Below are positions 585 to 64,000 of a DNA stretch of 64,000 nucleotides, piece after piece (the stretch's first letter is position 1; each line of letters starts with the position of its first letter). Made by a program: the position numbers and the translations under genes. Source of the DNA: a virus (lineage: Duplodnaviria; Heunggongvirae; Uroviricota; Caudoviricetes); IMG/VR virus record IMGVR_UViG_3300032280_000361. One strand, written 5' to 3'. The notes under the pieces were generated by a model. The model saw nothing but the letters and a program-made list of their open reading frames with translations. It searched no databases and had not been told where the DNA came from.

Positions 585-1136
585 TTACATTAAAACGTAA
601 CCCTTTTCCATATACTTTGATATATGTTTATATTTTATTTGTTCAATATTACCATTAGGGTCTTTAGCCATAACTATTTGGTTTCTTTCATATTGAACGG
701 GTGCTTTAATAGGTTGATTTATATTTTTATCAGCAACAGTAATACCATCTAAAAGGTCAATCATTTGTTGAGCAAAAATACATTCATTCAATTCCTCTCT
801 TTCATTTTCCATATCACCTTTGAATACTACCAACCCTAAATTATCGGTCTGGACTTCAATTGAATATGCTCTAATTACAATTCTAAATTTACCATTAGTA
901 TCAAATTCAGAAGTTTCAGTAGATTGAAATGCTTCATTTGAGTATTTTGTAATAATTGGATTGATTAGGAGAAGTGGAGTTTCAGTATTAAGATAAAATG
1001 CTCTGAATGGTAAGTTTACACTTCTTGTACAAACTGCTGATAAATTATTTTGTTTAGCAAATCTCTTTAGTGTTTTTTCAATTAGTTCTTCATCTGATTT
1101 AGTGAATGGAACTGCTTCAATCTTAGTTAATTTCAT
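585..1136 (-). CDS. peptide deformylase-fold protein with degenerate (metal-ligand-less) motifs
   Basis: LLLINPIITKYSNE matches PDF LVLINPELLEKSGE; motif II EGC replaced by ETS; motif III QHEIDHLxG replaced by QQMIDLLDG (both His and the Glu lost). Confidence 0.5.
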   Translation of the reverse strand: MKLTKIEAVPFTKSDEELIEKTLKRFAKQNNLSAVCTRSVNLPFRAFYLNTETPLLLINPIITKYSNEAFQSTETSEFDTNGKFRIVIRAYSIEVQTDNLGLVVFKGDMENEREELNECIFAQQMIDLLDGITVADKNINQPIKAPVQYERNQIVMAKDPNGNIEQIKYKHISKYMEKGYVLM

Positions 1137-11896: not shown

Positions 11897-11906
11897 AAAT
11901 TAAATT

Positions 11907-12284
11907 GGTGGAGGTGGAGGGAGTCGAACCCTCGTCCAAATACGGATTTAATAAACCTCATTCACAAGCTTAGTTTGTTTTTCTTAACAAACAAAATATT
12001 CGGTTGGTTCTTCACCATCGGCAACCGATAAACAATAGGTGATTCGATTTCGGGTTCAATCACTTTTCCACCTTGGTACACATTCTATTTTATATCCCAC
12101 GATGTGTGCGGGAGAGATTAGGCTGCTACAGCGTAATCAGCACCAACGAATGCCATTGCATCTTCGAAGGTCATTGTAGATAATTCTACGTCGTTTATTG
12201 TTCGATAGGTATTTAAGGATTTCCATCTAACCCTGCTTGCATCAACGTACTAACTCATCGTACCTGTCAAAACCAGGCACCCCC
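11907..12284 (-). ncRNA. ssrA: tmRNA (ssrA)
   Basis: 5' GGGGGUG pairs 3' CACCUCC-ACCA; T-arm GAGGGUUCGACUCCCUC; internal tag frame ...AFVGADYAVAA-TAA; ~378 nt. Confidence 0.75.
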
Positions 12285-12286
12285 AA

Positions 12287-13867: not shown

Positions 13868-13900
13868 AGATACGAAAAATAATCGATATATCCAAATAAA

Positions 13901-14929: not shown

Positions 14930-14930
14930 A

Positions 14931-18320: not shown

Positions 18321-18347
18321 ACTTTGGTATTTATATATCTATATATA

Positions 18348-18653: not shown

Positions 18654-18654
18654 C

Positions 18655-20021: not shown

Positions 20022-20022
20022 A

Positions 20023-21836: not shown

Positions 21837-21837
21837 A

Positions 21838-40378: not shown

Positions 40379-40923
40379 CGTGGTTTCCCAAACATCATTT
40401 TAGTGTGAATAGTTCCTGCAATTTTTCTATCATATGAACCATCACCATTCCATTTAAGTTCTTTACCCTTTAATGCTCTACGAACTGCATCCTCATCGTT
40501 AACAGGTACTAAACCCTTAGCCATAAATATATCTCTCATCTTACCGGAAACCTCTACATAATATCCACCCTTCTTTAACTTATCCACTTGATGATTCACC
40601 GCTGCCGATTTACCTGCCGAAGAACCATCATGCCCTAATGCAACAAACTTCTTACCAGCTGTTTTGTATTTAGCTATCGTAACCGCATCTATCTCATCAT
40701 CACCATCTACATCTATCACATCGAAGAAATCACCCTCATCAGGAAGGTCTTCTTTATCTTTCACATTAGAATGACCACCAATTGGAGCATAAGCAGTTGA
40801 AATCAAATCAAATATTATTCTCTTAAAACGAGATAGTTCGGAACGTAGAATTGGAGTCCACTTATTTTGTGGTATCTCAAATCGTTTGTCTGTTTCCTTA
40901 AGTAAATCTCTTAATCGTATCAC
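40375..40923 (-). CDS. leader-family protein 3
   Basis: MIRLRDLLKE leader; paralog of preceding gene (EIPQNKW ... FGKPR). Confidence 0.5.
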   Translation of the reverse strand: MIRLRDLLKETDKRFEIPQNKWTPILRSELSRFKRIIFDLISTAYAPIGGHSNVKDKEDLPDEGDFFDVIDVDGDDEIDAVTIAKYKTAGKKFVALGHDGSSAGKSAAVNHQVDKLKKGGYYVEVSGKMRDIFMAKGLVPVNDEDAVRRALKGKELKWNGDGSYDRKIAGTIHTKMMFGKPR

Positions 40924-41507
40924 AATGTAATTTTTTTATCTATATCGTATTTTTCATAAAAGTTATTAAGAATGTTTACTAAATCATCTATCATTCTTTT
41001 ATGTTTCTTTTGAGAATCAATATCTCCATCTGCGAAATCCGTCTTTGTTAATATAGTAGATATTATCTCTCTAGCACGCATACCTTGTACTGAAAACTTT
41101 TCATTCATTTCTTTATTTTCTTTCCATAATAAATTAGAAAATTTTGAATACATATATTTTTCAACCAATTTGTTTTCTAATTTTTTAAACTTAGCAGATT
41201 GGTCTCTTTTACCTATATAAGCATCCTTTTCAGTTTCTAATTTTATCTGATGTGTTATCTCATGTATAACGGCATATTCCGGGTCTTCCATTCTGTTTAC
41301 ATTAAATGAAATGTAAAGAGCTTTCATTGTTTTAGGATTGAACGTTATTGCAGCACCACCCTTACCAATATTATTAAATTTTACAGGCAGAGGTGTTATT
41401 TTTAAATCCTTGCACAATGCTTCATAATACGCTTTTATACTAGCAGGATTACGAACACCTTCCGTTAATATATCGTTTAACTTAATCATATTATTAAATA
41501 TTATCAA
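40920..41507 (-). CDS. leader-family protein 4 with HExxH motif (start likely Met7, ~41489)
   Basis: MIKLNDILTE leader; AVIHEITHQ zincin-like motif. Confidence 0.5.
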   Translation of the reverse strand: MIIFNNMIKLNDILTEGVRNPASIKAYYEALCKDLKITPLPVKFNNIGKGGAAITFNPKTMKALYISFNVNRMEDPEYAVIHEITHQIKLETEKDAYIGKRDQSAKFKKLENKLVEKYMYSKFSNLLWKENKEMNEKFSVQGMRAREIISTILTKTDFADGDIDSQKKHKRMIDDLVNILNNFYEKYDIDKKITL

Positions 41508-42120
41508 TTATATAATCTAACGTATCATCCTTACCTTTTAAATCCTTCCAATGTTTGGAGTTAATAAACATAGGATATAAACCTGTCATATTAGTATCAG
41601 CTTCCATTTCCCACGGTAGGTTTCTATATGCGGAAATATCTGATTTCATTAATTTACCATACTCCTTTGCATCGATATACTCCTTACCTTTCCATAGGAT
41701 AGAAGTATAATCTTTGTTTGGTAATAACTCACCTTTGGATACCTGCTTAACGTGAGTTAATTCGTGTATCATAGATTGGATAATTCTTTTATATGATTGG
41801 TTAGGATTAAAATGTAAATAGAATTTATTATTATCTACAGAGTTTGAGTTTAATGATATGTCTCCAATCATACCTGCTTTATCTTTTTTCTTTACTATAA
41901 TCTTAGCTTTAAACTTATACTTATCCATCATAAAAGAAACAACCGATTTAACCATTAAGGCTTCATATGGTTTCAATTTTAATGATGTCCCAAATAGGTC
42001 TTCCGATAGTATATCTCTTAACTTAATCATATTACCATTTTTTGCAACTCCAATATCTAGCTTTTGTTCTAGGTCCTGGTTCATCACAATTGTGTCTAGC
42101 TCTAAATGATTTCCTCGCAT
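41494..42120 (-). CDS. leader-family protein 5 with HExxH motif (start likely Met31, ~42030)
   Basis: MIKLRDILSE leader; SMIHELTHVKQ and downstream EMEAD. Confidence 0.5.
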   Translation of the reverse strand: MRGNHLELDTIVMNQDLEQKLDIGVAKNGNMIKLRDILSEDLFGTSLKLKPYEALMVKSVVSFMMDKYKFKAKIIVKKKDKAGMIGDISLNSNSVDNNKFYLHFNPNQSYKRIIQSMIHELTHVKQVSKGELLPNKDYTSILWKGKEYIDAKEYGKLMKSDISAYRNLPWEMEADTNMTGLYPMFINSKHWKDLKGKDDTLDYIIDNI

Positions 42121-42601
42121 CCGGATTCGATTTTCTTATTCTCATTGTTTCCTCACCTGCCGAAGCCGCTGAAGTGCCACCGTGTCCAAAGTTTACCTTA
42201 ACAACATTGCCGGCAGGATTCTTTACATATACTTTAAACTTCTTAACATCACCTTGCATTGGTTTACCCAACTTAACATCTCTACCCTGATATTCTGCTT
42301 CGTTTATCTCCGTAGTATATCCTTTTAAGAAATTAATAAAATCTTCTTCATCTTCATCCTCTACATCTAATTCATCGTAATCATCTGTATTATCATGTCC
42401 ACATTTATGACAAAGATATGGGTCTTTTCCACCATCGGATAAATCCCATTCCCATCCACACTCTGAACATTCTACTGATTGAGTTTCATTTTCATTAACT
42501 GGTACACAATTAGGAACTTGTCTATCTCCTTTCTTTTTCATACCAACTTGCTTATATCCCACCCAACAATCTTCGGATAATATATCTTTTAACTTAATCA
42601 T
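42032..42601 (-). CDS. leader-family protein 6 with zinc-ribbon-like Cys cluster
   Basis: MIKLKDILSE leader; CSECGWEWD..CHKCGHD; acidic DEDEEDF stretch. Confidence 0.5.
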   Translation of the reverse strand: MIKLKDILSEDCWVGYKQVGMKKKGDRQVPNCVPVNENETQSVECSECGWEWDLSDGGKDPYLCHKCGHDNTDDYDELDVEDEDEEDFINFLKGYTTEINEAEYQGRDVKLGKPMQGDVKKFKVYVKNPAGNVVKVNFGHGGTSAASAGEETMRIRKSNPDARKSFRARHNCDEPGPRTKARYWSCKKW

Positions 42602-42602
42602 A

Positions 42603-42935
42603 TTACAACTTTGCTATTAATGATTCATAGTCTAACTCAATTGTAAACTGATATGAACCCTGCTTATGTTTCGCATAGAAATCTAACCCTGTCTTCTTCT
42701 TAACGTATTTGATAATTTCATTATATACCTCATTCACACTATACTTTTCTACCTTAGCCAAATCACCTATAGTAGCGGGTAATAATAGTATTGTATCTGG
42801 TTTAGGCGAGGTTACTATAAAGTTCGCTTTGAAGAACTCTAATTTCTTAGCTTCCGTAATTGGAGCAACCTTAGATGGTTGTTTATTGATAACTGGTATA
42901 GAAACCACATTTGATACAATATCTTTTAATCTCAT
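42603..42935 (-). CDS. leader-family protein 7 (divergent leader)
   Basis: MRLKDIVSN N-terminus, 110 aa. Confidence 0.45.
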   Translation of the reverse strand: MRLKDIVSNVVSIPVINKQPSKVAPITEAKKLEFFKANFIVTSPKPDTILLLPATIGDLAKVEKYSVNEVYNEIIKYVKKKTGLDFYAKHKQGSYQFTIELDYESLIAKL

Positions 42936-43001: not shown

Positions 43002-43430
43002 TTATACAATCTTTTGTATTGTTTCTAAAAATTGCGGATTACCTATGGTATATAATTTACTATCAACCTCATATATTATATTCTTTCCATTACCCAAAGC
43101 CCATCTCAATACCCAATTTAATACAACCGAATCCATTTTTTTACTATGTTCCATTACATCATAATAGGAAAGTGTATCATCGGTTGGGTGCTTCTTATGT
43201 GAAATGACAACATTTGATAGAGTTGGTTTCATCCAATCTGGTATATCTTTATTCGTTAACCATTCACAATTGTAGGAACGACAAGGATGCTCTGGTCTAT
43301 CTTCATATATAGTACATCCACATTTAGTATCATAGTATGTACATTTGATACCATTACCCATTGGAACTCCTAAGATATCCGCTTTGAATCTACCATCGCA
43401 ACATTTGCCACATTCACCACACTCTCTCAT
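43002..43430 (-). CDS. YkgJ-family Cys-cluster (putative Zn/Fe-chelating) protein
   Basis: MRECGECGKCCDG (CxxCxxCC) and further Cys pairs. Confidence 0.45.
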   Translation of the reverse strand: MRECGECGKCCDGRFKADILGVPMGNGIKCTYYDTKCGCTIYEDRPEHPCRSYNCEWLTNKDIPDWMKPTLSNVVISHKKHPTDDTLSYYDVMEHSKKMDSVVLNWVLRWALGNGKNIIYEVDSKLYTIGNPQFLETIQKIV

Positions 43431-44716
43431 TATCTAAATCCTATTGTTGATTTGCCCTTCTCCTCACTCTTATACTCAGCCTCATTCACATTATAAATCT
43501 CTGTAAGTGTCATTGGTTTGGTTGCATCGTATGGAATCTTTAAGTGTTTCAATACGGCATTAGAATCCTCAATTGATAACTTACCAAACTCATGCTCCGC
43601 AATCAATCTACCCTTTCTCAATAACGCCTCATCAATCTTTCTCTTATCCATATTGAATGTTGCCACAATCTGAATGTTTAGGATATCGGAAAGGATACCA
43701 TCTGTTAAGTTAAGAATGTTTGATACACCAACTGAACCTCCTGTATTTCTATCTGTTATTACTCTCTCCGCATCTTCGATGAAAAGAATAGAGTTAGCAT
43801 TTTGAATTAAGAAAGGTGTCATCTCTGGTGAAGTAATGAAATCAGCTAAGTGAGGTGGAATGAATAACACTCTCTTACCTTTAATCTTAGAAGCCAAATA
43901 CTTTAGGTAGTGGGTCTTTCCTGTTCCAGGAGTTCCATGCAATAGAACCAATCCCTTTCCTTTCTTTTTGTTTAGTGTAGTTAGAATCTTTTCATGCACT
44001 TTAGTAAAATCTTTACCGTAGTTTAATTCAATATTCATTTGTTGTCTAGGTAATTCAAACGATTGAGTATCATAACCATTTCTACTCGCAATAACTAATG
44101 AAACATTATTAGATTCCTCTCTTTGTTTTCTTGCGATACTTTTTACCCTTTCAACAATTGTATTATAAATTGTTTCTACAACGTTTGAATAAATTCTAAT
44201 AGTTGCTATATCTCTAGCGTTACGAATTAGTTTCCCATTAAGTGGCATATATGTAACGTTCATTAACAATACACCACCATTATCTTTCATCTCATACCAT
44301 CTTGATGCACTATGTGAGCCGTTAACGTAATATTCACGCGAATGAATTTGTTTTAAGTTACAATCATCTATAAACGAAATGATATCTGAATTAGTAAATC
44401 TGTATTGGTCGGAAAGATTAAAGAAGTGAGTATAGTGTTTACCTGTTACTTCTAATCCATATGAACCAATTGGGAAATCGTCTGCATCAGTAGGTCTATA
44501 TGGTATCAACGATGGTATGGAATCCCCTCTATGAGAAGAATCTGCCATCATCTCTTTAATCATAGCAACTTCAGGCTCGGTCATATCCTGAACCTTCAAT
44601 ACTTTATCTCTTAATTGATTCTTAAATTTCCTAATGTTATCGCTCATATTATTTTGCTTTAGTTTTCTTTCTGTTTGCAATATCCCTTCTATGTTGTATA
44701 TGCTTTCGTTGGACAA
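43430..44716 (-). CDS. AAA+ ATPase
   Basis: LVLLHGTPGTGKTHYL Walker A, ILFIEDAERV Walker B. Confidence 0.75.
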   Translation of the reverse strand: MSNESIYNIEGILQTERKLKQNNMSDNIRKFKNQLRDKVLKVQDMTEPEVAMIKEMMADSSHRGDSIPSLIPYRPTDADDFPIGSYGLEVTGKHYTHFFNLSDQYRFTNSDIISFIDDCNLKQIHSREYYVNGSHSASRWYEMKDNGGVLLMNVTYMPLNGKLIRNARDIATIRIYSNVVETIYNTIVERVKSIARKQREESNNVSLVIASRNGYDTQSFELPRQQMNIELNYGKDFTKVHEKILTTLNKKKGKGLVLLHGTPGTGKTHYLKYLASKIKGKRVLFIPPHLADFITSPEMTPFLIQNANSILFIEDAERVITDRNTGGSVGVSNILNLTDGILSDILNIQIVATFNMDKRKIDEALLRKGRLIAEHEFGKLSIEDSNAVLKHLKIPYDATKPMTLTEIYNVNEAEYKSEEKGKSTIGFR

Positions 44717-48839: not shown

Positions 48840-49148
48840 CTACTTAAGAGTTAACATATCCTCAATCATTTGTACTATGTGGGATGGGCCTTTTTTCAAC
48901 TCCCAAATACCCAATAACCTTCTAATTGGTATTCCACCTCCTAAGTCATCACTCCAAAACCATAATTCATAAAGGGCAGTATCACCTTCACCGATTGGAG
49001 TTCGTTCTATATTAACCTGAATAGTTTTTCTTCTATTATATTTGTATAATTGTATTAAGTAAGCGGTATTCAATGTTTCCACTTTACCAACTCTCCACTC
49101 TCCCGCATCCATTTTGTAAAGTTTGGATATGTTCTTTATGGTTAACAT
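48840..49148 (-). CDS. MLTIKN-family paralog 1
   Basis: N-terminus MLTIKNISKL; TAATG stop/start overlap with next paralog. Confidence 0.5.
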   Translation of the reverse strand: MLTIKNISKLYKMDAGEWRVGKVETLNTAYLIQLYKYNRRKTIQVNIERTPIGEGDTALYELWFWSDDLGGGIPIRRLLGIWELKKGPSHIVQMIEDMLTLK

Positions 49149-49441
49149 TAGTATATTAGATTTTCAATGGCGGAACAAAATGAATCCATATCGGAAATTT
49201 GTGCTTTGTTTAATAGAACGTATGAAGAACCGTATTCCAATTTATACATCCCTACTTTGACACGATTAGGATAACGGTGCAACTTTACATCTCTTTTATG
49301 AGAACCCAACATATCATTTATAAAGATACGATAGACGGCACGGTCGGTAACCATATTGGCGATAATGAAATCCAACCCGATTGTACGGCCGGAAAGCTTA
49401 TCCATATTTTCTATTGTTAATAATCCATGCGTTCTATTCAT
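49148..49441 (-). CDS. MLTIKN-family paralog 2 (degenerate N-terminus)
   Basis: LLTIENMDKL after short extension. Confidence 0.45.
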   Translation of the reverse strand: MNRTHGLLTIENMDKLSGRTIGLDFIIANMVTDRAVYRIFINDMLGSHKRDVKLHRYPNRVKVGMYKLEYGSSYVLLNKAQISDMDSFCSAIENLIY

Positions 49442-49521
49442 ATATTCAGTTTTCTTTTATTATACTCTCCATCAGTCCCCCCCCACCGTCCGAAAATTTT
49501 TAGAGAGGGAATATTGATAGT

Positions 49522-49854
49522 TTAGATATCCCATACTTGCCTCCCATAGATACACACTAACTCACCAAATATCCTCATCAATTCCATTTCGGAAAACAAA
49601 ATCTGCAAAGGTTGATGACCTCCATGTGGATTATGAACGGGCTCTAACCTATACCACCGCCCATCTATACTATCCCTATGAGTTTCCTTCCACAACATAA
49701 GAGCAAGAAAATCCTTTGTCTCACCACTCTCCTTCAACTCCATCATAAAGTGGTAACCGTCTTCCCTCTCCGTTACATCATTGATATGGATATGAAACCC
49801 TCCGCTTTGAAGAGCAAACCCAACAAGCTTTTTATAGTTTTGAATCCTTAACAT
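49522..49854 (-). CDS. MLTIKN-family paralog 3
   Basis: MLRIQNYKKLVGF. Confidence 0.5.
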   Translation of the reverse strand: MLRIQNYKKLVGFALQSGGFHIHINDVTEREDGYHFMMELKESGETKDFLALMLWKETHRDSIDGRWYRLEPVHNPHGGHQPLQILFSEMELMRIFGELVCIYGRQVWDI

Positions 49855-50186
49855 TACGCTATACTATCTTTATGGTTTTCCAATGTACTCTCAACTAATT
49901 CGTAAAGTTGAACGGAATGGAGGATATCCTTCGGTTGTAACATATAAGTACACTTCCAACTCGCACCCACTTGAAACACTTCACATTTATAACCGGATGT
50001 GTATCCCCTATTTTGAGAAACGATACTCTCTTCCCTCTCTATTCGGCAAGTTACGGGTTGCCTATCTCCAATACGTTGCTCAAAGACGAATACATAATAA
50101 TCCGCACCTTCGAACGCCTTTGCCAAATCCCATCCCCATATAACGCCGGAAAGGAGGTCTTTATCGTATCGTTTAATTGTTAACAT
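49854..50186 (-). CDS. MLTIKN-family paralog 4
   Basis: MLTIKRYDKDLL. Confidence 0.5.
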   Translation of the reverse strand: MLTIKRYDKDLLSGVIWGWDLAKAFEGADYYVFVFEQRIGDRQPVTCRIEREESIVSQNRGYTSGYKCEVFQVGASWKCTYMLQPKDILHSVQLYELVESTLENHKDSIA

Positions 50187-50550
50187 ATACTTTGTCTAAT
50201 TGGCGGATAAGTGAATAAATGAATACGTTAGGCGAAACAAAATCATTGTAGTGAAAATAAAAAGAGTTCTCCTTCATAGATGGGCCATAGAGATTCATCC
50301 TATAATGGTCGTGTTCGTTATACATAGGTAGAGTATGTAGATAAGTAGAGTATTCAGTTCTCCCATAGTTAAACCCTATACGATACTGAGGTTCTGATAC
50401 ACTATCCTCTAAGTAAGTATCTACCCATAGGAACTCAATAGAAGAAGGGTACTGAGAGGAACGAACACCTAAGTCGTGTATCCCCATTAGTTTATCCTTT
50501 ATATTCTTTATCTGTAGTAACTTACCACTCTGTATATACTTTATACTCAT
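50173..50550 (-). CDS. MLTIKN-family paralog 5 (extended N-terminus)
   Basis: LLQIKNIKDKL at residue 11; C-terminal VYVNN shared with paralog 8. Confidence 0.45.
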   Translation of the reverse strand: MSIKYIQSGKLLQIKNIKDKLMGIHDLGVRSSQYPSSIEFLWVDTYLEDSVSEPQYRIGFNYGRTEYSTYLHTLPMYNEHDHYRMNLYGPSMKENSFYFHYNDFVSPNVFIYSLIRQLDKVYVNN

Positions 50551-50562
50551 AACATTGTTGAT

Positions 50563-50895
50563 TTACCCGCAACTATTTTCTATTACCTTTAACATCTCCC
50601 TTTCTATAAACCACTTATCCTTTATCTCATCCTTAGTAAGATGGCTATGAGAGAATCCACCACCCTCATTAGGAGATTTTAATTGTTGAGATTGTATTCG
50701 GTAGAGTATCGGTTCTTCGCTCCGCCTATCTCTACTTATGGCAACATCGAACATAGGATAGTTCCACCCGCTTATACTCTCAAATCGGAATGTGTACCAA
50801 TCTTCTAACTCCTCCGTATGTTTGCATTGATATAACTTCCCCTTAATAGAGAAAACAAAATCAATCCAAATGTTATGGTTCTTAATCGTTATCAT
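50563..50895 (-). CDS. MLTIKN-family paralog 6
   Basis: MITIKNHNIWIDF. Confidence 0.5.
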   Translation of the reverse strand: MITIKNHNIWIDFVFSIKGKLYQCKHTEELEDWYTFRFESISGWNYPMFDVAISRDRRSEEPILYRIQSQQLKSPNEGGGFSHSHLTKDEIKDKWFIEREMLKVIENSCG

Positions 50896-51200
50896 TTATA
50901 TGGCTTATATTGATTCATTACCCTAATACTCTTATCTAACCACTCCCAATGTAATTCTAATACGGAACGATTCACCACTCCACTCCAAAGAGGTTGTGTA
51001 CCTGGTGTAGTAGTGAACATCATCATCGGTAACTCCCCTTTAGCGTTCTCAAACCTCCTTCCTAAAAAGATTTGGTATTGGTGGCCAGTTCTACCCGTCC
51101 AAAGAAAAACATAACTATCATTCGTCTCCGTTACGGAATTCAACCTCCATGCTAAGAAAACCTTACCCTCCCCTAATGTATAGTTCTTAATTGTTAACAT
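50892..51200 (-). CDS. MLTIKN-family paralog 7
   Basis: MLTIKNYTLGEG. Confidence 0.5.
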   Translation of the reverse strand: MLTIKNYTLGEGKVFLAWRLNSVTETNDSYVFLWTGRTGHQYQIFLGRRFENAKGELPMMMFTTTPGTQPLWSGVVNRSVLELHWEWLDKSIRVMNQYKPYK

Positions 51201-51510
51201 ATATCATTTTGTGTTTACATACTATCGCTACCAATTCATTCCAATTAGGTATATCCTTTGTATCAATGTATGTATGGTAACCGCTCGTTGTCCATAATCT
51301 ATAACCTAATACCTCACTACCTATACGTTTTTTCTTCCTATCTAAAATGACCAACTGCATCTTTTGTGTATCATATCTACCCGCTTCCATTGGTATAAAC
51401 ATAAATCGGTATTCTATATTGGTTGCATACGCTCCGTACAATATCCATTCATCTCCACCAAAATTAAAATTTGCATTATTTAGATTCTTTATGTTCTTTA
51501 TTGTTAGCAT
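51187..51510 (-). CDS. MLTIKN-family paralog 8
   Basis: MLTIKNIKNLNN; ends MIYVNN. Confidence 0.5.
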   Translation of the reverse strand: MLTIKNIKNLNNANFNFGGDEWILYGAYATNIEYRFMFIPMEAGRYDTQKMQLVILDRKKKRIGSEVLGYRLWTTSGYHTYIDTKDIPNWNELVAIVCKHKMIYVNN

Positions 51511-51803
51511 GGGTAATCACTTAATATACCTTCCATTTGAATTAACATATTATCTTTATCCGCAATCCAATCCATAGTTACCTCATTACTTATATCCCTA
51601 CCATTATATAGTATCTCATAAGTCCGCTTTCCCTCATAAGAAGATAGTGAATCCCTACGAAGACCTATTATACATGTCTTAGCCGTTACATTGTTTGATA
51701 CGATGAAATCATAGAACCTATCATCTTCACTAACGTGTAATACGGAATAGTTAGGATGTAGTACCTTACCTACTAGCTTTTGGTATCCTTTAATCCTTAT
51801 CAT
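51504..51803 (-). CDS. MLTIKN-family paralog 9
   Basis: MIRIKGYQKLVGKVL. Confidence 0.5.
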   Translation of the reverse strand: MIRIKGYQKLVGKVLHPNYSVLHVSEDDRFYDFIVSNNVTAKTCIIGLRRDSLSSYEGKRTYEILYNGRDISNEVTMDWIADKDNMLIQMEGILSDYPC

Positions 51804-51943
51804 ACTCTATGTAGTTTAATCCATTCTAAAGAGAAAGATAATAAAGACCAGGGTGCAGGGTATCCTCTATACTCTTTGCCTTTGGCTATTATTGTTATCG
51901 ATGTGGGTTGCCACCTACCTAACTGATTTATTTCTTTTTCCAT
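51800..51943 (-). CDS. small ORF (47 aa, not in ORF track)
   Basis: MEKEINQLGRWQ...; ATG preceded by conserved GATAAACGATAAACTATG context; ATGA overlap with next gene. Confidence 0.3.
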   Translation of the reverse strand: MEKEINQLGRWQPTSITIIAKGKEYRGYPAPWSLLSFSLEWIKLHRV

Positions 51944-51946
51944 AGT

Positions 51947-52222
51947 TTATCGTTTATCATCGGTATAAGTTTCGTTATAGTATGCCTCAATATCTTCCCT
52001 ACCTACATTGTGTGTACATCCATAGGCAAAATCTATTGTCTGATTCTTTTCCATCTCTAAGTAGTTCCTCTTAAACATCTCCCAATGAATTGAATCGGTT
52101 TGTAAATCCTTCATCAACTCTATTCGTTGGAGGGCTAGGGTAAGTGCTGTTTTCATATTATAAATTAAATTTTTTAAATCTCCAATCTCCTGCCTCCCCA
52201 TCAAAACCACCTCTATCCGCAA
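51947..52222 (-). CDS. hypothetical protein (true start may be internal Met at ~52156)
   Basis: 91-aa ORF overlapping upstream gene by 65 nt unless internal start used. Confidence 0.35.
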   Translation of the reverse strand: MRIEVVLMGRQEIGDLKNLIYNMKTALTLALQRIELMKDLQTDSIHWEMFKRNYLEMEKNQTIDFAYGCTHNVGREDIEAYYNETYTDDKR

Positions 52223-52520
52223 TATCTAATATGTTCTCTAAGAATTGGGTAAAGTTATCCAATGAAATCAAATCTCTCGTAGTTACTCCCATAGGATATG
52301 ATTTTTTGTTAGTCCAATCGTATAACCACATCTGATATCTATAACCTATATCCCTATGTTCGGTAGCCTCTCTTATGATATCCATTCGGTATTGGTTAGT
52401 GGATGTATTTAACTTTATCACATATAGTTTGGTTAAGGTATCCATACCATCAATTCTGAATCTATCTGATACCACTTTGGTAGCCATTGAATAAAATCCC
52501 TTTATCTCTAATCGTTTCAT
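52158..52520 (-). CDS. hypothetical protein
   Basis: 120 aa; start preceded by GATAAACGATAAACTATATG context. Confidence 0.4.
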   Translation of the reverse strand: MKRLEIKGFYSMATKVVSDRFRIDGMDTLTKLYVIKLNTSTNQYRMDIIREATEHRDIGYRYQMWLYDWTNKKSYPMGVTTRDLISLDNFTQFLENILDIADRGGFDGEAGDWRFKKFNL

Positions 52521-52525
52521 ATAGT

Positions 52526-52849
52526 TTATCGTTTATCTTCGAAGTATCTTTTAATTACTGAGTATAATTGGTATCGGAACTCTTCAGCTCCTCTCTTTAA
52601 GTTACTATAACTGAGGTTATGTTGTACATATACTCCATCTACCTTTATCTGTAGTGAACCATTTTGATTAGGTTCTTTGATTAAGTGAACCTTTATAACC
52701 TCACTCCAACCTCCAATCACATATTCGAATTCGTAAGCCCCTTCCCAATTGATGGATGTTACACAATGTCCCAATACCTGTCCATTGGATTTAACTATAT
52801 CTCCCTTAATCTTATCGTGTCCGTCTATGTTAATTAGTTTCATGCTCAA
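52526..52849 (-). CDS. hypothetical protein
   Basis: 107 aa. Confidence 0.4.
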   Translation of the reverse strand: MSMKLINIDGHDKIKGDIVKSNGQVLGHCVTSINWEGAYEFEYVIGGWSEVIKVHLIKEPNQNGSLQIKVDGVYVQHNLSYSNLKRGAEEFRYQLYSVIKRYFEDKR

Positions 52850-53078
52850 AGATACAAAATTAGCCCCATATAACCAAATTTTTTTTAGTGAAATTTTACC
52901 CTTTGGGTATTAATATATATTTTTTCTCACGAGGGTAAAAACTAATCAAAATATGCTAGTGTACCCCTGCCCCCCTTTTAAAAAAAAAGTTATTCACATC
53001 TCCATAGAACCTAAGCCCTATGGATGTGGATAACTCGCCTATAGTGTGTGGCTACCCTATGGTGTTACATATTGTTAC

Positions 53079-54429: not shown

Positions 54430-54735
54430 AGTGTATCTCTTTTAGTACATAGTAAAGGTACGGTGTAGACCTCATATATCCAAGCATTTACTGAATTATT
54501 TTCTGTTTCCGACAAAATAATCTGTCTGAGTATCAACGACTTATAACTTATTGATTGTCAGAGGGTTACGACCGGCTGTTACTCTCTCTATTCCCGCCCT
54601 ACCACCCTATAAAGGTACGACTTTCCGTCCACAAATCCAAGGGATGTGGATAAATAAAGTTAAAAAAAAAGATGGGAAAAGACTTTGTCATATGGTAGAA
54701 AGTCGTATCTTTACTATATAACAAAACAACAAACA
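54430..54735. promoter_or_regulatory. divergent promoter region (type-1 cassette for minus genes; inverted CGTATCTTTACTATATAACAAAA element for plus genes) containing a DnaA box
   Basis: cassette copy 54430-54560; TGTGGATAA at 54645-54653; plus-strand GTCGTATCTTTACTATATAACAAAACAACAAACA-ATG. Confidence 0.5.
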
Positions 54736-54909
54736 ATGAAATCAGTTAATGAAACCAAATCGAATCTAGACTACTTAAAGGGGTTAAACGGAGAGGAGTT
54801 CTTCTTTAGAGGGCAACATCCTGATAAGAGAACCGATATGGAGTGGGTTAAGTATATGAATACGAAGTACCCTCACCTTAAGTGGACCGGCAAAGATGAT
54901 AAAAAATAA
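54736..54909 (+). CDS. hypothetical small protein (start refined from track ORF 54685)
   Basis: MKSVNETKSNLDYLKG...; ATG 54736 lies 18 nt after the promoter-like element. Confidence 0.4.
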   Translation: MKSVNETKSNLDYLKGLNGEEFFFRGQHPDKRTDMEWVKYMNTKYPHLKWTGKDDKK

Positions 54910-54970
54910 TCATCAAATTGCTTGGATATACGGTATCTATACTGTACCTTTAATATATAAACGATAAACT

Positions 54971-55216
54971 ATGAATAGAAGTGATAGTAAGTTAATAGAA
55001 CTAAACGATGTGATAGGTGTGGAAGTATCAGAAAACTTCTCTCCTACCCTCAGAGCTAAACTTATCCATATAGATGAGTATCACGGAACGTGTCTTATGG
55101 AGGTAGTACCCTCTCCCTATGTATCTATGATGCAAGGTGGTTCACTAAACAATGATAGAGTTGGTGAAAGGTATCACGCTCCTATCTATCGTATCCACAA
55201 CGCTTATTTCTTTTAA
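54971..55216 (+). CDS. hypothetical protein
   Basis: 81 aa; start context ATAAACGATAAACTATG. Confidence 0.4.
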   Translation: MNRSDSKLIELNDVIGVEVSENFSPTLRAKLIHIDEYHGTCLMEVVPSPYVSMMQGGSLNNDRVGERYHAPIYRIHNAYFF

Positions 55217-55226
55217 AAAACAAAAA

Positions 55227-55457
55227 ATGAAAAAATACAGAAACTACAAAGTAGAACCTGCCCCTACACCTACCTATACAGAGATGGTCTCAGTTACCCT
55301 TAAGAATGGAGGAGTTAAAAAATTCGTAACACCTCAGAAAGCTGAGTTGTGGATAGAAGAACAAATAGCCCTCAGAGCAATCAATGGTGGTGCTAAAGAG
55401 GCTAAGGCACAATTAATGGATATGGGTTTGGTCCCATTTGAATTTAAAACTGCATAG
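55227..55457 (+). CDS. hypothetical protein (start refined to Met26 of track ORF 55152)
   Basis: MKKYRNYKVEPAP...; begins 10 nt after previous stop. Confidence 0.4.
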   Translation: MKKYRNYKVEPAPTPTYTEMVSVTLKNGGVKKFVTPQKAELWIEEQIALRAINGGAKEAKAQLMDMGLVPFEFKTA

Positions 55458-55460
55458 AGT

Positions 55461-55799
55461 ATGGACGGAAACAAAAAAGAATTTATAGAGTTATCCGAAG
55501 AGGAACTATTCCAACTGCCAGAGAATGAGTTTATGGAGTACTTAGACCGTAAGGCAGCATATCTAAAAGGATTCACTCGCCCATTAGGTACATACCACAC
55601 AAAACAATTTATGGCTCAGACAGTAGGTGGTGAGTTATCCACAGAACAATTAAAGAAAGCAAAAGAGATTGGAGCAGTAGGGGATGAAGCATGGACAGAA
55701 GGAATCCGTAAGGCGGCAGAGAAGATGGGAGGAGACCCTAAGTTATCAGACCCTGGCATTAAGAACATCAAAACCAATAGGAAACAATGGTTTGATTAA
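55461..55799 (+). CDS. hypothetical protein
   Basis: 112 aa. Confidence 0.4.
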   Translation: MDGNKKEFIELSEEELFQLPENEFMEYLDRKAAYLKGFTRPLGTYHTKQFMAQTVGGELSTEQLKKAKEIGAVGDEAWTEGIRKAAEKMGGDPKLSDPGIKNIKTNRKQWFD

Positions 55800-58556: not shown

Positions 58557-59264
58557 CTATATCAATTCTTTGTTAGTATATCCAAAGGTATCCATATCTT
58601 CCTTTGTTATATCTCTTAGTTTTCCGATTATATCCCTACGCCCCTCTTTATGTAAAATGTTTAACATTCTATGTGATTCGTTATGGTGATGCCCTTCGTT
58701 TAACTTATTAAGAATGAATCCATATAGTGTAACCGCATACAATCTATCATTAATTTCCATTGGTATCCCTACCTCATCTAATATACCAAAATCCTCTATA
58801 TACTCTTCCACATTGAAAAAAGGCTTTGTAGTACTCAAGGATATGTTAGATGAAGGTCTGTACCGGTCTACTAACTTATCCCACCCTTCTCTTATATCCT
58901 CTATCTTATATATGGTTTCATTACCCCTTCTATCCAAATCCCAACTCTGCGGTTGTAGATGTGAATCGTTTGATTTAGCACACTTATCCTTATACCCATC
59001 TAAGAATTTATCTAATGCCCTTATCTTATCCGCAAATGGTATCTCCATCCCCTTTACTATCCCTAAGTGGTAGAATATACTAACCAATCTCTCCATTGGA
59101 TTTCTTACGAATAAAAGGGTTTCACCTTCGTGTCTATCTCCCGCAATCCGCATTCCCTTCCAATCTAATATACTCTTAAAGAATCCTGCCATTAGGGAGC
59201 TCCCTGACTTCTCAAAAAATATTAAATTCTTTCTTAACTCAGGTATGTATATTACTTTACTCAT
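58557..59264 (-). CDS. sulfotransferase-like protein
   Basis: IFFEKSGSSL (5'-PSB-like), LFVRNPMERLVSIFYH (3'-PB RNPxDRxVS). Confidence 0.55.
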   Translation of the reverse strand: MSKVIYIPELRKNLIFFEKSGSSLMAGFFKSILDWKGMRIAGDRHEGETLLFVRNPMERLVSIFYHLGIVKGMEIPFADKIRALDKFLDGYKDKCAKSNDSHLQPQSWDLDRRGNETIYKIEDIREGWDKLVDRYRPSSNISLSTTKPFFNVEEYIEDFGILDEVGIPMEINDRLYAVTLYGFILNKLNEGHHHNESHRMLNILHKEGRRDIIGKLRDITKEDMDTFGYTNKELI

Positions 59265-59751: not shown

Positions 59752-60111
59752 TTATTTAATTATTCCGTGTTGTATCGGTTTTCCATTTTCATCAACCGCT
59801 ACGAATACTATTTTATCTATTCTGATAATGGTTTTCTTTGTATCCTTATTTCTTACTTCACAGGCTATCGTTACTGATGTATTACCAAATTGGATTAATT
59901 CACACCCTATCTCTACCACATCTCCTAACTTAGCCGATGATACAAAATTTACCTCACTCATTGCTTTGGTAACTATACTTCGGGTGTTCAATTGACATAT
60001 ACAAAATATAGATGCTTCCTCATCAATCCATTTCAATACCTGTCCGCCAAATAGAGTTCCTCTCGCATTAAGGTCTTCGTATTTGATTAGTTTGCGTGTT
60101 TTGTAATTCAT
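59752..60111 (-). CDS. hotdog-fold acyl-CoA thioesterase-like protein
   Basis: GTLFGGQVLKWIDEEASIFC matches YciA/4HBT block. Confidence 0.55.
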   Translation of the reverse strand: MNYKTRKLIKYEDLNARGTLFGGQVLKWIDEEASIFCICQLNTRSIVTKAMSEVNFVSSAKLGDVVEIGCELIQFGNTSVTIACEVRNKDTKKTIIRIDKIVFVAVDENGKPIQHGIIK

Positions 60112-60112
60112 A

Positions 60113-60364
60113 CTATACTACTGAATACTCTTTTACCTTTGTGATATTAAAGCTCCTCCATCCACCTTTCTCCAAATCGAATACGGTGATGTTATCAGAT
60201 GTGTTACCACCTGCTGATTCTGTCTTAGGATGATTCTCTTCAGGAATTAAATCCATCCACTTAGTACATTTCATTACTCTATCTGTGCCATCCGCTTTTG
60301 TGAATGTTACACTTACAGGTCCGGCTACTAACAATTCAATTAGCTCTGTTTTATTGATTTCCAT
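60113..60364 (-). CDS. hypothetical protein
   Basis: 83 aa. Confidence 0.4.
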   Translation of the reverse strand: MEINKTELIELLVAGPVSVTFTKADGTDRVMKCTKWMDLIPEENHPKTESAGGNTSDNITVFDLEKGGWRSFNITKVKEYSVV

Positions 60365-60366
60365 AA

Positions 60367-60642
60367 TTATTTATTTTCTTTTTTATTAGTTACATTATTT
60401 TGTTCTCTCATTATATCCATCATTACTTCAAAAACTGGAATTTGGTAATGTTCCGCTGCCTTATCTATTTCCTCTTTCGGAAATGATTTAGCAAATATAT
60501 CTTCATCATTGTAGTCCACCAACCAATAATCATCAGCTTCCTCAGGATGTACATCTATATATGCCTCTATCTCTCTGATAACGCCTTCTGCATCTTCAGG
60601 TGATAATTCATGTGGTATAAACCATTTTTGTTGCTCTGCCAT
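60367..60642 (-). CDS. hypothetical acidic protein
   Basis: 91 aa. Confidence 0.4.
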   Translation of the reverse strand: MAEQQKWFIPHELSPEDAEGVIREIEAYIDVHPEEADDYWLVDYNDEDIFAKSFPKEEIDKAAEHYQIPVFEVMMDIMREQNNVTNKKENK

Positions 60643-60658
60643 ATTATTGTTTTTTATT

Positions 60659-60928
60659 TTATACTACTTCAACGGTCAGGTCATTATCTATTAACCTCTC
60701 CGCCATTTTAATCATTTCATCTAATCCACCACTCTTCACTTTACACTTACCACTATTATGTACTATCATAGCACATTGTTCTGCCTGATGTGATGAGTGT
60801 CCACATATTCCAACTAAACATGCTATCACATGCTCAAATGAATTAACATCATCATTGTATAATACTAATATAGAGATATCGATTTCTTTCTCTTTACTTT
60901 CTACCTTATCTTTTAAATCAGTCTGCAT
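60659..60928 (-). CDS. clpS: ClpS-like ATP-dependent Clp protease adaptor
   Basis: ISILVLYNDDVNSFEHVIACL ... QAEQCAMIVHNSGKCKV fits ClpS core. Confidence 0.55.
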   Translation of the reverse strand: MQTDLKDKVESKEKEIDISILVLYNDDVNSFEHVIACLVGICGHSSHQAEQCAMIVHNSGKCKVKSGGLDEMIKMAERLIDNDLTVEVV

Positions 60929-61130
60929 TTGTTCTGTTTATATGTTTTATATGCTCATCAGCCGCTTCACACTTTGCTCTATACATCTTTCGGATTATAC
61001 TACCTAATTGAGAATCTGTTATATTCGTATCTATTATAATCTCTTTACGAACTGTCAATGTTTCCTTTGATTCAGAAGCCATCTCTAACATTTGTTTCTG
61101 ATAGATTTTAGCGTAATCGATTTTAGTCAT
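60918..61130 (-). CDS. hypothetical small protein
   Basis: 70 aa. Confidence 0.35.
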   Translation of the reverse strand: MTKIDYAKIYQKQMLEMASESKETLTVRKEIIIDTNITDSQLGSIIRKMYRAKCEAADEHIKHINRTNAD

Positions 61131-61298
61131 TTACTATCCTTTAGTTGGTGATGAAAAATAATATTCTCTTGCAACCGTCAACCTTTCAATAAAATTTCTA
61201 TTTTCAATCTTAGTATCATCCCACATAGTAGATACTTTTAATTCTTTAGCCCATTCGTTAAATGTAATTCGACTTTTAGTTTTTTCCTTTTTCATATT

Positions 61299-62192
61299 CT
61301 ATTTGTTTATAAACGGTAATATTGCTAACTCCTTTCCTTTTGCTTCAACCATAATGTCCAAATCCAAGTCGTATGTATTGGGGAGGGCATTAATAAGATA
61401 GGAATGTGCTTGTGGTTTTTCTTTTGGGTTGTTTTCATGTAATGCTTTTGATTCAGAATAATGAACTTCTTGCTTTATCCCTTCAGGCCATGTTGTAGCT
61501 GCTAACTTAAGTGCTTGCTCCTCTGATAAATCACCTGTACAAAATTGATGGTGATGGTAATCAAACACAATAGGTATGTCTGTATTCTGATGGATATACA
61601 TAAGGTCTTTAACTGAATACATAGATGCTTTATCATCATTCTCTACCGTCAATCGTTTACTTACCGATGGCGATAGCCTTTTAAAGTTTTTGATAAATCT
61701 ATCCATAGCAGATTGCTTATCTCCATACACACCATTACAATGAATATTGATATTGTTAAATCGTGTCTTAGATAACCCCATCATATCGAATATCTTACCA
61801 TGCAGTTCTAAATCAGCAATTGCGTTTTTAACTACTTCCTCATTCGGAGAAGTTAATACAACAAATGGACCAGGATGTGAGTTGAGTCGCATATTCCAAA
61901 ACTTAGCGTAATCACCTGCTTTCTTTAACTCCGATTTAATCTCTTTATAATCTTTCAGTTGAGTTAAATCAATATGGTCTCCCCACGGAACAATAGTAGA
62001 TGATAATCTAAAAAGGGATATACCATTCATTCTATTCCACTCTAATATCTTTATAATATCTTTAGCGTTCAATAGAGCAAGTTCTGATACATAATCTAAA
62101 CCCTTTGATTCGAAAGTACGCTTAACCATTGCTCGGTTAGTAGTTACTTTCTTACCCATACTCATATTGATACAAGCGTAGCCTAAATTCAT
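61299..62192 (-). CDS. uvdE: UV damage endonuclease UvdE
   Basis: LGYACINMS, FRLSSTIVPW, HPGPFVVLTSPNEEVVKNAIADL, INIHCNGVYGDK, TVENDDKASMYS, IMVEAKGKELAIL align block-by-block with UvdE. Confidence 0.85.
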   Translation of the reverse strand: MNLGYACINMSMGKKVTTNRAMVKRTFESKGLDYVSELALLNAKDIIKILEWNRMNGISLFRLSSTIVPWGDHIDLTQLKDYKEIKSELKKAGDYAKFWNMRLNSHPGPFVVLTSPNEEVVKNAIADLELHGKIFDMMGLSKTRFNNINIHCNGVYGDKQSAMDRFIKNFKRLSPSVSKRLTVENDDKASMYSVKDLMYIHQNTDIPIVFDYHHHQFCTGDLSEEQALKLAATTWPEGIKQEVHYSESKALHENNPKEKPQAHSYLINALPNTYDLDLDIMVEAKGKELAILPFINK

Positions 62193-62554
62193 ATTAATTC
62201 TTTTACGTTTACTAATATACCCAATGAGGTATTGTTATCTCCACCCTTAACTCCCATTCTGGCCTTACCACTTCTAACTAATTCTTTTAGCTTCCGCTTA
62301 AGTTCCTCTTTCGCTATGATAATTGCTCTATGTTCGCTTACCTTATACACCCAATAATCTGCTTCCGATGTTCGGATGCCTGATTTCTTACCTCTACTCT
62401 CATACTCAATATAGACATTACCTGTCTGTTCGGTTAATCTATCTGTTTTAACCTCAACCTTAGAATTAGTAACTATATTGTGAAACCAGCTTTCGCCTTC
62501 CACAACACCAAACTCTAAATCATATCTGAAATCTGAATTGAATTCCATATACAA
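62189..62554 (-). CDS. hypothetical protein
   Basis: 121 aa, 4-nt overlap with uvdE start. Confidence 0.4.
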   Translation of the reverse strand: MYMEFNSDFRYDLEFGVVEGESWFHNIVTNSKVEVKTDRLTEQTGNVYIEYESRGKKSGIRTSEADYWVYKVSEHRAIIIAKEELKRKLKELVRSGKARMGVKGGDNNTSLGILVNVKELI

Positions 62555-62580
62555 ATATACGAAAATATACCCACATTTCC

Positions 62581-62613
62581 AAATAAAAAACCCTCAATTT
62601 TTAGGTTGAGGGT
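62581..62613 (-). terminator. rho-independent terminator after groEL
   Basis: minus-strand CCCUCAA-CCUAAAAAU-UGAGGG + UUUUUUAUUU. Confidence 0.6.
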
Positions 62614-62622
62614 CTTAATTTA

Positions 62623-64000
62623 TTACATTCCAAATCCACCTCCAGGAGGCATCATTGGTGTTTCTTTCTCTTCTTTCTTCACACCGATAACACATTCAGT
62701 TGTTAACAATAGGGAAGCAATACTTGCTGCATTCTCTAAAGCCAAACGAGTTACCTTTGTAGGGTCAATGATACCAGCTGCTACTAAATCCTCAAACTTC
62801 TCAGTTCTCGCATTATAACCATAGTTGCCTACACTACCTTTAACCTCATTGATTACTACTTCAGCAGAACCTCCACCATTTTGAACAATAGTTCTTAAAG
62901 GTGCTTCTAATGCTTTCTTAATAATCTGAACACCGGTGATATAATCAGTATCTTGTCCAACTAAGTTAATTTTAGTTGAATCTTCTAATGCAGTTAGTGC
63001 TCTGATTAAAGCAACTCCACCACCAGGAACAATACCTTCAGCTACCGCTGCTCTTGTTGCGTGTAATGCATCATCTACTCTATCTTTCTTTTCTTTCATC
63101 TCAACCTCTGTAGTTGCACCGATGTATAAGATAGCTACACCTCCACTTAATTTAGCTAATCTTTCCTGCAACTTCTCTCTATCATAATCAGATGTTGCCT
63201 TTTCGATTTGAGATTTAATTAAAGAAATTCTATTCTTAATTTCATCAGCATCTCCACCACCATTTATGATTGTAGTTGTATCCTTATCAATTGTAAGCTT
63301 TTCAGCAGTTCCTAACATATCGATAGTTGCCTTCTCTAATGTATAACCTTTCTCTTCTGAAATTACAGTACCACCTGTTAAGATTGCAATGTCTTCCAAC
63401 ATTTCTTTTCTTCTATCACCAAATGCAGGTGCTTTAACAGCTGCAACTTTCAATGAACCTCTTAACTTATTAACTACTAATGCAGCTAATGCTTCTCCAT
63501 CAACATCTTCAGCAATAATCACTAATGGTTTGTTAGTTTGTGCTGATGATTCTAATAATGGTAGGATTTCTTTTAATGTAGAAATCTTCTTATCATATAA
63601 TAAGATGTATGGTTTCTCCATTTCCGCTTCCATTGATTCTTGATTAGTTACAAAGAATGGAGATGAATAACCCTTATCAAATTGCATACCTTCTACAGTC
63701 TTTACTTCTGTTTCTGTACCCTTTGCTTCTTCAACGGTGATAACACCATCTTTACCAACCTTCTCCATAGCAGTTGCAATCATCGCACCAATCTCAGTAT
63801 CGTTGTTTGCAGATACAGTTGCTACTTGCTCAATCTCTTTTGAAGTTTGAATCTTCTTTGAGATATTAGATAATTCCGCTACTACAACACTAACCGCTTT
63901 GTCGATACCTCTCTTTAAATCCATAGGATTCGCTCCTGCTACTACGTTTTTGTAACCTAATGCGAAAATCTCTTGTGCCAATACGGTTGCAGTTGTTGTA
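62623..64000 (-). CDS. groEL: chaperonin GroEL (N-terminus truncated by window edge)
   Basis: [11 protein letters not shown] at window edge; Ile/Val-rich apical and equatorial blocks; C-terminus [11 protein letters not shown]. Confidence 0.95.

Follow-up and report, generated by a model that had tools for sequence, protein, structure and literature searches.

The 64,000-nucleotide (nt) stretch of the uncultivated Caudoviricetes record IMGVR_UViG_3300032280_000361 analysed here, hereafter the window, encodes the chaperonin GroEL, a homologue of the N-degron adaptor ClpS, the small heat-shock protein Hsp20 and a transfer-messenger RNA (tmRNA). Taken as a whole, our analysis indicates that these are probably host-type quality-control genes that were acquired independently and are transcribed independently, and that they lie in the accessory-gene arm of a jumbo phage of Bacteroidota, a tailed phage of about 293 kb with a T4-type baseplate. 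A sequence-only reading had instead proposed a single co-directional proteostasis module. All four features are phage-encoded and co-directional as that reading stated, on the minus strand like groES, but they occupy separate units. The groES-groEL pair and clpS are 1.7 kb apart while Hsp20 and the tmRNA lie 48-58 kb away, and the adjacency of GroEL and ClpS is confined to near relatives.

Genomic context of the window

The window is the interior (approximately positions 180,170-244,169) of a 292,950-bp metagenome scaffold in the European Nucleotide Archive that carries the window's UvdE gene. One stretch of this source contig, L001, matches the window at 99.992% identity along 12.7 kb, and a window position equals 72193 minus the L001 position. 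Beyond the groEL edge of the window the contig holds the first 87 codons of groEL, a gene for a 91-aa GroES, a T4-type RNA ligase (PHROG 562) and an ATP-dependent DNA ligase (PHROG 114), along with a kinase-like ATPase, a phosphoesterase, a Kyanoviridae gp96-like gene and an RNase H-like gene. Past the window start, close relatives with 88-97% nucleotide identity, which IMG/VR classes as viral genomes, encode a carbamoyltransferase and gp25- and gp6-like baseplate wedge proteins (PHROGs 261, 219 and 43). Hallmark genes of contractile-tailed Caudoviricetes, namely the baseplate wedge, RNA ligase and DNA ligase families, are thus present, and a 677-aa baseplate protein shares 38.7-41.7% identity with proteins of Flavobacterium phage vB_FspM_immuto, Microcystis phage Mel-JY01 and a 484-kb uncultured huge phage. 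Since megablast of 24 kb against 50,697 phage records returned zero matches, the phage has no close cultured relative in that collection.

GroEL, GroES, ClpS and tmRNA are typically cellular, phage attachment sites are common at tmRNA 3' ends (PMC11590407), and some of the GroEL matches in phage databases are bacterial contamination. The window could on these grounds be taken for bacterial DNA, as a host flank, a prophage border or a mis-binned contig with the tmRNA as an integration-site remnant. We regard this as extremely improbable. Guanine-cytosine (GC) content (27-37%, AT-rich) and strand bias are uniform across the 64 kb, and Pfam and PHROG scans of the window found no ribosomal, core-metabolic or integrase matches. 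The phage GroEL is at most 61% identical to the GroELs of phage records, contaminants included, and ClpS at most 62% identical to any cellular sequence among its GTDB relatives; the tmRNA is full-length, with both tRNA-like halves and an intact tag frame. Because phage genes lie to either side of the window within the 293-kb contig, the DNA is that of a novel jumbo phage lineage and not of a host, and the baseplate wedge, T4-type RNA ligase and DNA ligase genes that flank it speak against the caveat of the sequence-only reading that these genes might belong to flanking host DNA.

Coding in the window is almost entirely on the minus strand, and the Pfam and PHROG scans found no virion or replication core genes in the 64 kb. 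Its accessory genes include at least six open reading frames (ORFs) resembling 2-oxoglutarate (2OG)-Fe(II) oxygenases, a tryptophan halogenase, an adenosine 5'-phosphosulfate (APS) kinase-like protein and a dTDP-sugar epimerase. Methyltransferase-like and sulfotransferase-like proteins, PhoH, an SPFH/Band7 protein, an AAA ATPase, UvdE, a hot-dog thioesterase and a WYL_2 protein are also encoded.

The chaperonin and ClpS genes

The groEL gene had been described as full-length-looking and running off the window edge, and the source contig bears out both points. The complete gene (545 aa, L001 7933-9570) scores 817.8 bits against TIGR02348, whose equivalog cutoff is 582.1, and matches PHROG 5725 'chaperonin groEL' (3.7e-177); its translation shows a GDGTTT nucleotide-binding motif and a Gly/Met-rich C-terminal tail. 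The accompanying remark that no co-chaperonin gene is visible inside the window is literally true but reflects an edge effect. A search upstream of position 64000 recovered groES about 280 nt outside the window and 20 nt upstream of groEL, so the apparent orphan GroEL is a window-edge artefact. Like bacterial GroES and GroEL, the pair passes the equivalog or subfamily hidden Markov model (HMM) cutoffs; unlike them, it has no controlling inverted repeat of chaperone expression (CIRCE) operator upstream of groES. The best-supported reading is that of a phage chaperonin predicted to be complete on its own.

GroEL occurs in 224 of the 50,697 phage records, some of which are evident bacterial contamination (Salmonella and Acinetobacter records), and the highest identity among all of them, contaminants included, is 61%. 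GroEL relatives are also encoded by 558 IMG/VR stretches. We read synteny from locus fragments, using 80 of the 558 GroEL loci with their flanks and the best 80 viral ClpS loci with 10 kb on either side. GroES lies inside the examined flanks at 29 of the 78 GroEL loci with enough upstream sequence, and in several GroEL relatives (79-81% identity) it is found approximately 1.9 kb downstream of groEL rather than upstream. Complete GroES/GroEL pairs are therefore common in viral contigs. They appear less usual in cultured jumbo phages, given that over 224 jumbo phages Hsp60 and Hsp10 tend toward different phage sets (Iyer et al.).

The ORF that had been called ClpS-like passes both HMM and structure matching. 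An AlphaFold (AF2) model built from 29 homologues has a mean predicted local distance difference test score of 86, with a core above 93 and a disordered stretch of 14 residues at the N terminus. In a Foldseek search of the PDB its first 38 matches are all ClpS, including structures from Mycolicibacterium, E. coli, Caulobacter, Arabidopsis, Plasmodium and Agrobacterium (best root-mean-square deviation 0.7-0.8 Å, target template modelling scores up to 0.92). The top PDB matches of a phmmer search with ClpS were designer pentatricopeptide repeat (PPR) proteins, a repeat artefact of about 4 bits per domain that was disregarded. All 29 homologues keep N25 and D26, and the conservation of D27 and H57 is 90% or higher. 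These residues align to N34, D35, D36 and H66 of E. coli ClpS, which line its N-degron pocket; these roles reportedly come from the 2009 structures of Schuenemann and Roman-Hernandez.

At least 582 stretches in GTDB genomes encode relatives of this ClpS, and the best 80 of them are nearly all from Bacteroidota (Flavobacteriales, Chryseobacterium, Hymenobacter, Pontibacter and similar) at 40-62% identity. Among viruses, this type of ClpS is found in three of the 50,697 phage records, all huge phages of 635-642 kb with 45-47% identity, and a ClpS relative is encoded by at least 205 IMG/VR viral contigs. Two further contigs of 94-110 kb that carry 53-58%-identical relatives are phage-like too. 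Directly upstream of clpS, the small gene ORF70 (Table 1) is probably translationally coupled to it, as its stop overlaps the clpS start by 11 nt. A 37.5%-identical copy of ORF70 (L261 6474-6662) precedes a 44%-identical ClpS in the diverged relative L261, and because the gene is again directly upstream of ClpS there, it may encode a ClpS-associated partner.

Between groEL and clpS lie a strong terminator-like hairpin and, directly after it, a promoter-like site (Table 1); a similar promoter-like site is found upstream of groES at L001 7522-7553. This arrangement suggests that groES and groEL form a bicistronic unit and that clpS belongs to the next one, a tightly packed predicted unit with the order ORF121-UvdE-ORF53-ORF70-ClpS-ORF91-WYL_2-thioesterase-ORF131, whose other identifiable members are unrelated to proteostasis. 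Bacteroidota sigma-A promoters combine a -33 TTTG element with a -7 TAnnTTTG element. The corresponding motif, TTTG-N18-21-TAnnTTTG, occurs at 14 sites in the window as against 2.24 +/- 1.33 in shuffled sequences, an approximately sixfold excess that none of 100 shuffles reaches. The coding strand holds 10 of the 14, most of which closely precede an ORF start. Its extended consensus reads TTTGG...TTTTCGTATaTTTG. A scan for the sigma-70 consensus was uninformative (40 sites, 28.8 expected). Because the ClpS relatives are from Bacteroidota and the promoter motif is enriched, the host is by this indirect evidence most likely a member of Bacteroidota, and probably of Flavobacteriales, whose RNA polymerase would transcribe these genes.

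Table 1. Positions of the quality-control genes, their transcription signals and associated ORFs
Feature	Window position	Strand	Evidence and remarks
groES, 91 aa	64281-64556, window-equivalent, outside window (L001 7637-7912)	-	NF001531 127.9 bits (cutoff 96); PHROG 3188
groEL, first ~87 codons	64001-64260, window-equivalent, outside window	-	source contig; start codon ~260 nt past 64000
groEL, codons ~88-545 and stop	62623..64000, runs off edge	-	Pfam Cpn60_TCP1 1.8e-53
Intrinsic terminator-like hairpin, 11 pairs then T-run	62587..62616 (L001 9577-9606)	-	terminator scan; directly after groEL stop
Promoter-like site, Bacteroidota-type TTTG-N20-TAtaTTTG	62552..62583	-	motif search; predicted start of clpS unit
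Example promoter-motif sites	1157-1188, 9525-9556, 13865-13896, 27361-27392, 52847-52878, 62552-62583	- (all)	motif search
ORF70, 70 aa	60918..61130	-	no Pfam or PHROG match; end overlaps clpS start by 11 nt
clpS, 89 aa, Bacteroidota-type N-degron adaptor homologue	60659..60928	-	PF02617 58.6 bits (gathering score 23)
tmRNA, one-piece	11906..12284	-	ARAGORN; Rfam RF00023 101.2 bits (gathering score 47), model positions 1-374, full length
Hsp20/alpha-crystallin small heat-shock protein, 135 aa	2700..3107	-	PF00011 41.6 bits (gathering score 20.8)
Peptide-deformylase-like protein, 183 aa, divergent	585..1136	-	PF01327 26.0 bits (gathering score 22.8)

Hsp20, the tmRNA and the linkage of the set

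The remaining two genes of the set were also recovered where the sequence-only reading had placed them, Hsp20 at exactly the same position and the tmRNA with a start 1 nt before the 11907 given there. Hsp20 matches PHROG 432 'Hsp20' (5.4e-6) and ends in ...KKVTIKVG, which by eye contains the I-x-V oligomerisation motif, while it scores under every cutoff of the NCBIfam small heat-shock protein equivalog models. It is 87-93% conserved in close relatives and 61-63% in viral contigs of 221-237 kb. The peptide-deformylase-like ORF lies 1.5 kb from Hsp20 and is conserved exactly in 18 contigs. It has no PDB sequence match and gave no usable BLASTP alignment to the E. coli enzyme; since the EGC and HExxH catalytic motifs appear to be missing on reading the sequence, unconfirmed by alignment, it may be a non-catalytic protein with a deformylase fold. 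Elsewhere in the window, an SPFH/Band7 protein (32125-33036, minus strand, 79.5 bits), whose family includes HflK/C, which modulate FtsH, and a 428-aa single-module AAA ATPase (43430-44716, minus strand) with a 240-aa N-terminal domain of unassigned type could bear on membrane protein quality control.

The conserved one-piece tmRNA with its 24-residue tag is the least ordinary element of the set. Its tRNA-Ala-like domain has a G3-U pair (columns 3-379, eight of eight family members), an intact acceptor stem, a T-arm and a CCA end. The tag reading frame (12118-12192) encodes DVELSTMTFEDAMAFVGADYAVAA*, that is, an initial Asp and a 16-residue extension in all before the GADYAVAA end, which resembles the GENNYALAA tags of Bacteroidota. 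The sequence AACAAUAAAC immediately 5' of the resume codon GAC is in register with the consensus resume position of the Rfam alignment, which supports the long tag. The tmRNA 3' end retrieves 65 IMG/VR loci, 12 of which carry the same 24-residue tag, and the tag consensus over 13 contigs is DVELSTMTFED[AV]M[AS]FVGADYA[VLI]AA. The eight distinct long-tag sequences are 88-97% identical; the pseudoknot regions next to the tag frame are partly replaced among relatives, and changes within the frame are only synonymous or conservative (GCA/GCT, GTT/GTA, A to V, A to S, V to L or I). RNAalifold on these eight members found compensatory changes at 10 base pairs. Conservation of the tag together with these compensatory changes points to selection on the tmRNA, including its tag reading frame.

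Two other tmRNAs of Bacteroidota phages that we examined are two-piece, with unrelated tags. The IMG/VR contigs L171-L235, which share the tmRNA 3' end, mostly carry two-piece (permuted) tmRNAs as well, with ANDNVAFALAA, ADAELVAA and ANAFKPEVTVPMSVFADQELVAA as recurrent tags; tmRNA genes thus appear to be frequent in uncultivated phages.

The proposed module would imply that the four genes were assembled and retained together as one programme that remodels host folding and degradation. Their shared direction and the short distance between groESL and clpS are in keeping with it, as is the recurrence of the order groES-groEL-UvdE-ORF70-ClpS in L261, where ClpS is only 44% identical to that of the window (GroEL 85%, UvdE 81%). 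Two viral contigs of 229-238 kb encode this long-tag tmRNA together with a ClpS of 49% identity, and the peptide-deformylase-like and SPFH/Band7 genes extend the theme. Several observations nevertheless make such a module unlikely. A terminator and a fresh promoter-like site part groEL from the clpS unit, whose other members include a UV endonuclease, a thioesterase and a WYL_2 protein, and the distant Hsp20 and tmRNA genes sit among modification and metabolic genes (oxygenases, a halogenase, methyltransferases and PhoH). GroEL, GroES and UvdE lie near ClpS in only three of the best 80 ClpS-bearing viral loci, all near-identical relatives, and neither Hsp20 nor the tmRNA lies within 10 kb of ClpS in any of the 80, which leaves 77 with no GroEL, GroES, Hsp20 or tmRNA in that range. 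Conversely, ClpS is found within about 3 kb downstream of GroEL at three of the 68 GroEL loci whose flanks are long enough (L261 and two near-identical relatives) and is missing from the other 65. The four genes show neither co-transcription or tight linkage nor conserved synteny across diverged relatives, and with adjacency this infrequent the GroEL-ClpS linkage is a property of a narrow lineage and not a recurrent module.

Predicted roles, precedents and neighbouring genes

We favour the view that separately acquired genes of host type were kept and would act independently on the translation and folding load of the infected cell. Our analysis establishes gene identities, fold, conserved residues, phage context, transcription signals and distribution, whereas the biochemical activities, partners and timing given here are predictions. 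Each gene probably works with host partners, ClpA/ClpC-ClpP for ClpS and SmpB with host proteases for the tmRNA. The groES-groEL operon would supply a complete phage chaperonin that may fold phage proteins such as capsid subunits, by analogy with the folding of the T4 capsid protein by host GroEL with T4 gp31. Hsp20 would serve as a holdase. The tmRNA, presumably charged with alanine through its G3-U pair, would use the host's SmpB to release stalled ribosomes and add the 24-residue tag ending in YAVAA, a likely degron for host proteases. ClpS, with its pocket residues and flexible N-terminal extension, is predicted to dock on host ClpA/ClpC-ClpP, where it could redirect the protease to N-degron substrates and divert it from others.

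A second possibility is that ClpS acts mainly as an inhibitor or decoy, occupying the N-domain of host ClpA/ClpC so that phage proteins or products tagged by the tmRNA escape ClpAP, comparable to the block of Lon by T4 PinA. E. coli ClpS inhibits ClpAP degradation of ssrA-tagged and other substrates, according to the account of Dougan et al. 2002 given in PMC6102473, and the phage ClpS changes faster than the genes around it (in L261 it is 44% identical, where GroEL retains 85%) and falls well under the equivalog cutoffs. A pure decoy, however, would not need the pocket residues N25, D26, D27 and H57, which are kept in phage and cellular members alike, and the AF2 model shows the disordered N-terminal extension through which substrates are handed off. 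We hold a mainly inhibitory role to be unlikely.

Some observations count against a set of host-type genes with host partners. F31 and A53 of the phage ClpS replace the E. coli specificity residues M40 and M62, a difference from the bacterial ClpS-ClpAP pathway that is common to the whole Bacteroidota-type clade and stands beside the shared fold and pocket residues. All six NCBIfam ClpS equivalog models score below cutoff (best 34 bits, cutoff 160), which places this ClpS on a divergent branch. In Flavobacterium defluvii and an Aquimarina sp., no ClpA-sized ORF lies beside clpS in the surroundings of that gene, and in F. defluvii clpS follows prmA. No SmpB gene was seen in the window or its 10-kb flanks, and tblastn with Hsp20, a divergent protein, found no match in the 50,697 phage records. 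The phage tmRNA shares the G3-U pair, T-arm, CCA end and tag ending in AA with bacterial SsrA but differs in the length of its tag, the Asp start and the extension before GADYAVAA.

Published phages carry overlapping parts of this set (PMC6102473, PMC7824862, PMC11590407, PMC7162821), which weakens any claim of rarity or novelty. The sequence-only reading had called these gene types rare in phages; this holds for isolated phages (GroEL in 224 records, ClpS in three and Hsp20 in none) but not for uncultivated viral contigs (558 for GroEL, 205 for ClpS). Agrobacterium jumbo phage Atu_ph07 encodes its own ClpS and Hsp20, which have been read as managing host protein quality control (PMC6102473; PMC7824862). 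It differs in its alphaproteobacterial host and in additionally encoding ClpA, ClpB, ClpX, ClpP and DnaJ, and GroEL and tmRNA are not mentioned for it (PMC6102473); its ClpS is too divergent for retrieval by tblastn with the window ClpS. Phage ClpS has been predicted to feed host ClpAP, and Hsp20, Hsp60 and Hsp10 are known in jumbo phages (PMC7824862).

Maribacter phage Panino likewise has a flavobacterial host and encodes GroEL, GroES and a tmRNA (SsrA), discussed mainly as an integration-related element, but it is a podovirus with 20 tRNAs and an integrase, and no ClpS or Hsp20 is reported for it (PMC11590407). Flavobacterium phage vB_FspM_immuto (Immutovirus, 160 kb) is among the nearest cultured relatives, with an annotated adjacent groES-groEL pair and a baseplate wedge protein 38.7% identical over 99% of its length, whereas GroEL identity is only 54%, the immuto genome is roughly half as large, and tblastn found in it no ClpS of the window type and no related Hsp20. 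The huge phages of Al-Shayeb et al. 2020 carry tmRNAs, alongside SmpB unlike the phage described here (PMC7162821, where ClpS and chaperonins are not discussed). Besides the three genomes with 45-47%-identical ClpS, two 735-kb huge-phage records have a 61%-identical GroEL. Phage tmRNAs are also known in crAss-like phages, Chryseobacterium phage MA9V-3 and Pelagibacter phage Mosig.

The neighbourhoods of these genes hold further features, all on the minus strand unless stated. A modification-enzyme island (9557-24082) surrounds the tmRNA and contains the oxygenase-like ORFs, four of them mutual paralogues, together with the tryptophan halogenase (20023-21267), the dTDP-sugar 3,5-epimerase and an amidinotransferase-like ORF. 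The APS-kinase-like ORF (24079-24522) follows it, and of the sulfotransferase-like ORFs the one at 58557-59264 is supported by Pfam; these genes suggest phage-directed modification of glycans or small molecules. A DUF262/GmrSD_N-like protein with a C-terminal HNH-like region, resembling type IV restriction enzymes (5256-6944), marks a strain-variable locus, as DNA alignment of the window with the relatives L003, L004 and L006 fails in this gene alone.

Eleven tandem ORFs of 97-125 aa (48840-52849), most of which start with M(L/I)(T/R)IKN, look like a rapidly evolving paralogue array; BLASTP and phmmer comparisons of all window ORFs did not unite them beyond this shared N-terminal motif. Six consecutive ORFs (38221-42935) carry an (I/R)(R/K)L(x)(D/E/N)(I/L)L motif at or within about 30 residues of the N terminus, and two of them (39830-40378 and 40375-40923) are significant paralogues. 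HExxH metalloprotease-like motifs occur in two ORFs of this run (40920-41507 and 41494-42120) and at 35770-36222; neither the run nor 35770-36222 has a Pfam match. Plus-strand islands at 10270-11232 and 54551-55799 interrupt the minus-strand coding and coincide with local reversals of GC/AT skew.

A more far-reaching idea is that the long-tag tmRNA and the fast-evolving Bacteroidota-type ClpS form a functional pair that a clade of phages of 230-290 kb has retained. We hold this to be very unlikely on present evidence. If it were true, stalled nascent chains would receive from the tmRNA an extended degron specific to the phage, with the 16-residue extension perhaps serving as an adaptor-binding site, and ClpS would retarget or block host ClpA/C-ClpP, giving the phage control over which proteins the cell degrades. 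The conserved family of long-tag tmRNAs, found together with ClpS in two diverged jumbo lineages, is the one lead that may merit experiments.

Individual genes of this sort had been reported in large phages before, and none of the component types is without precedent, which leaves the current view of phage quality-control genes unchanged. What the contig offers is a well-resolved example of a jumbo phage, probably of Bacteroidota, in which a complete chaperonin is joined by a Clp adaptor, a small heat-shock protein and an RNA for ribosome rescue. It also provides experimental handles in the ClpS clade, represented in at least 205 viral contigs, in the long-tag tmRNA family, and in a host-type promoter motif for host prediction.

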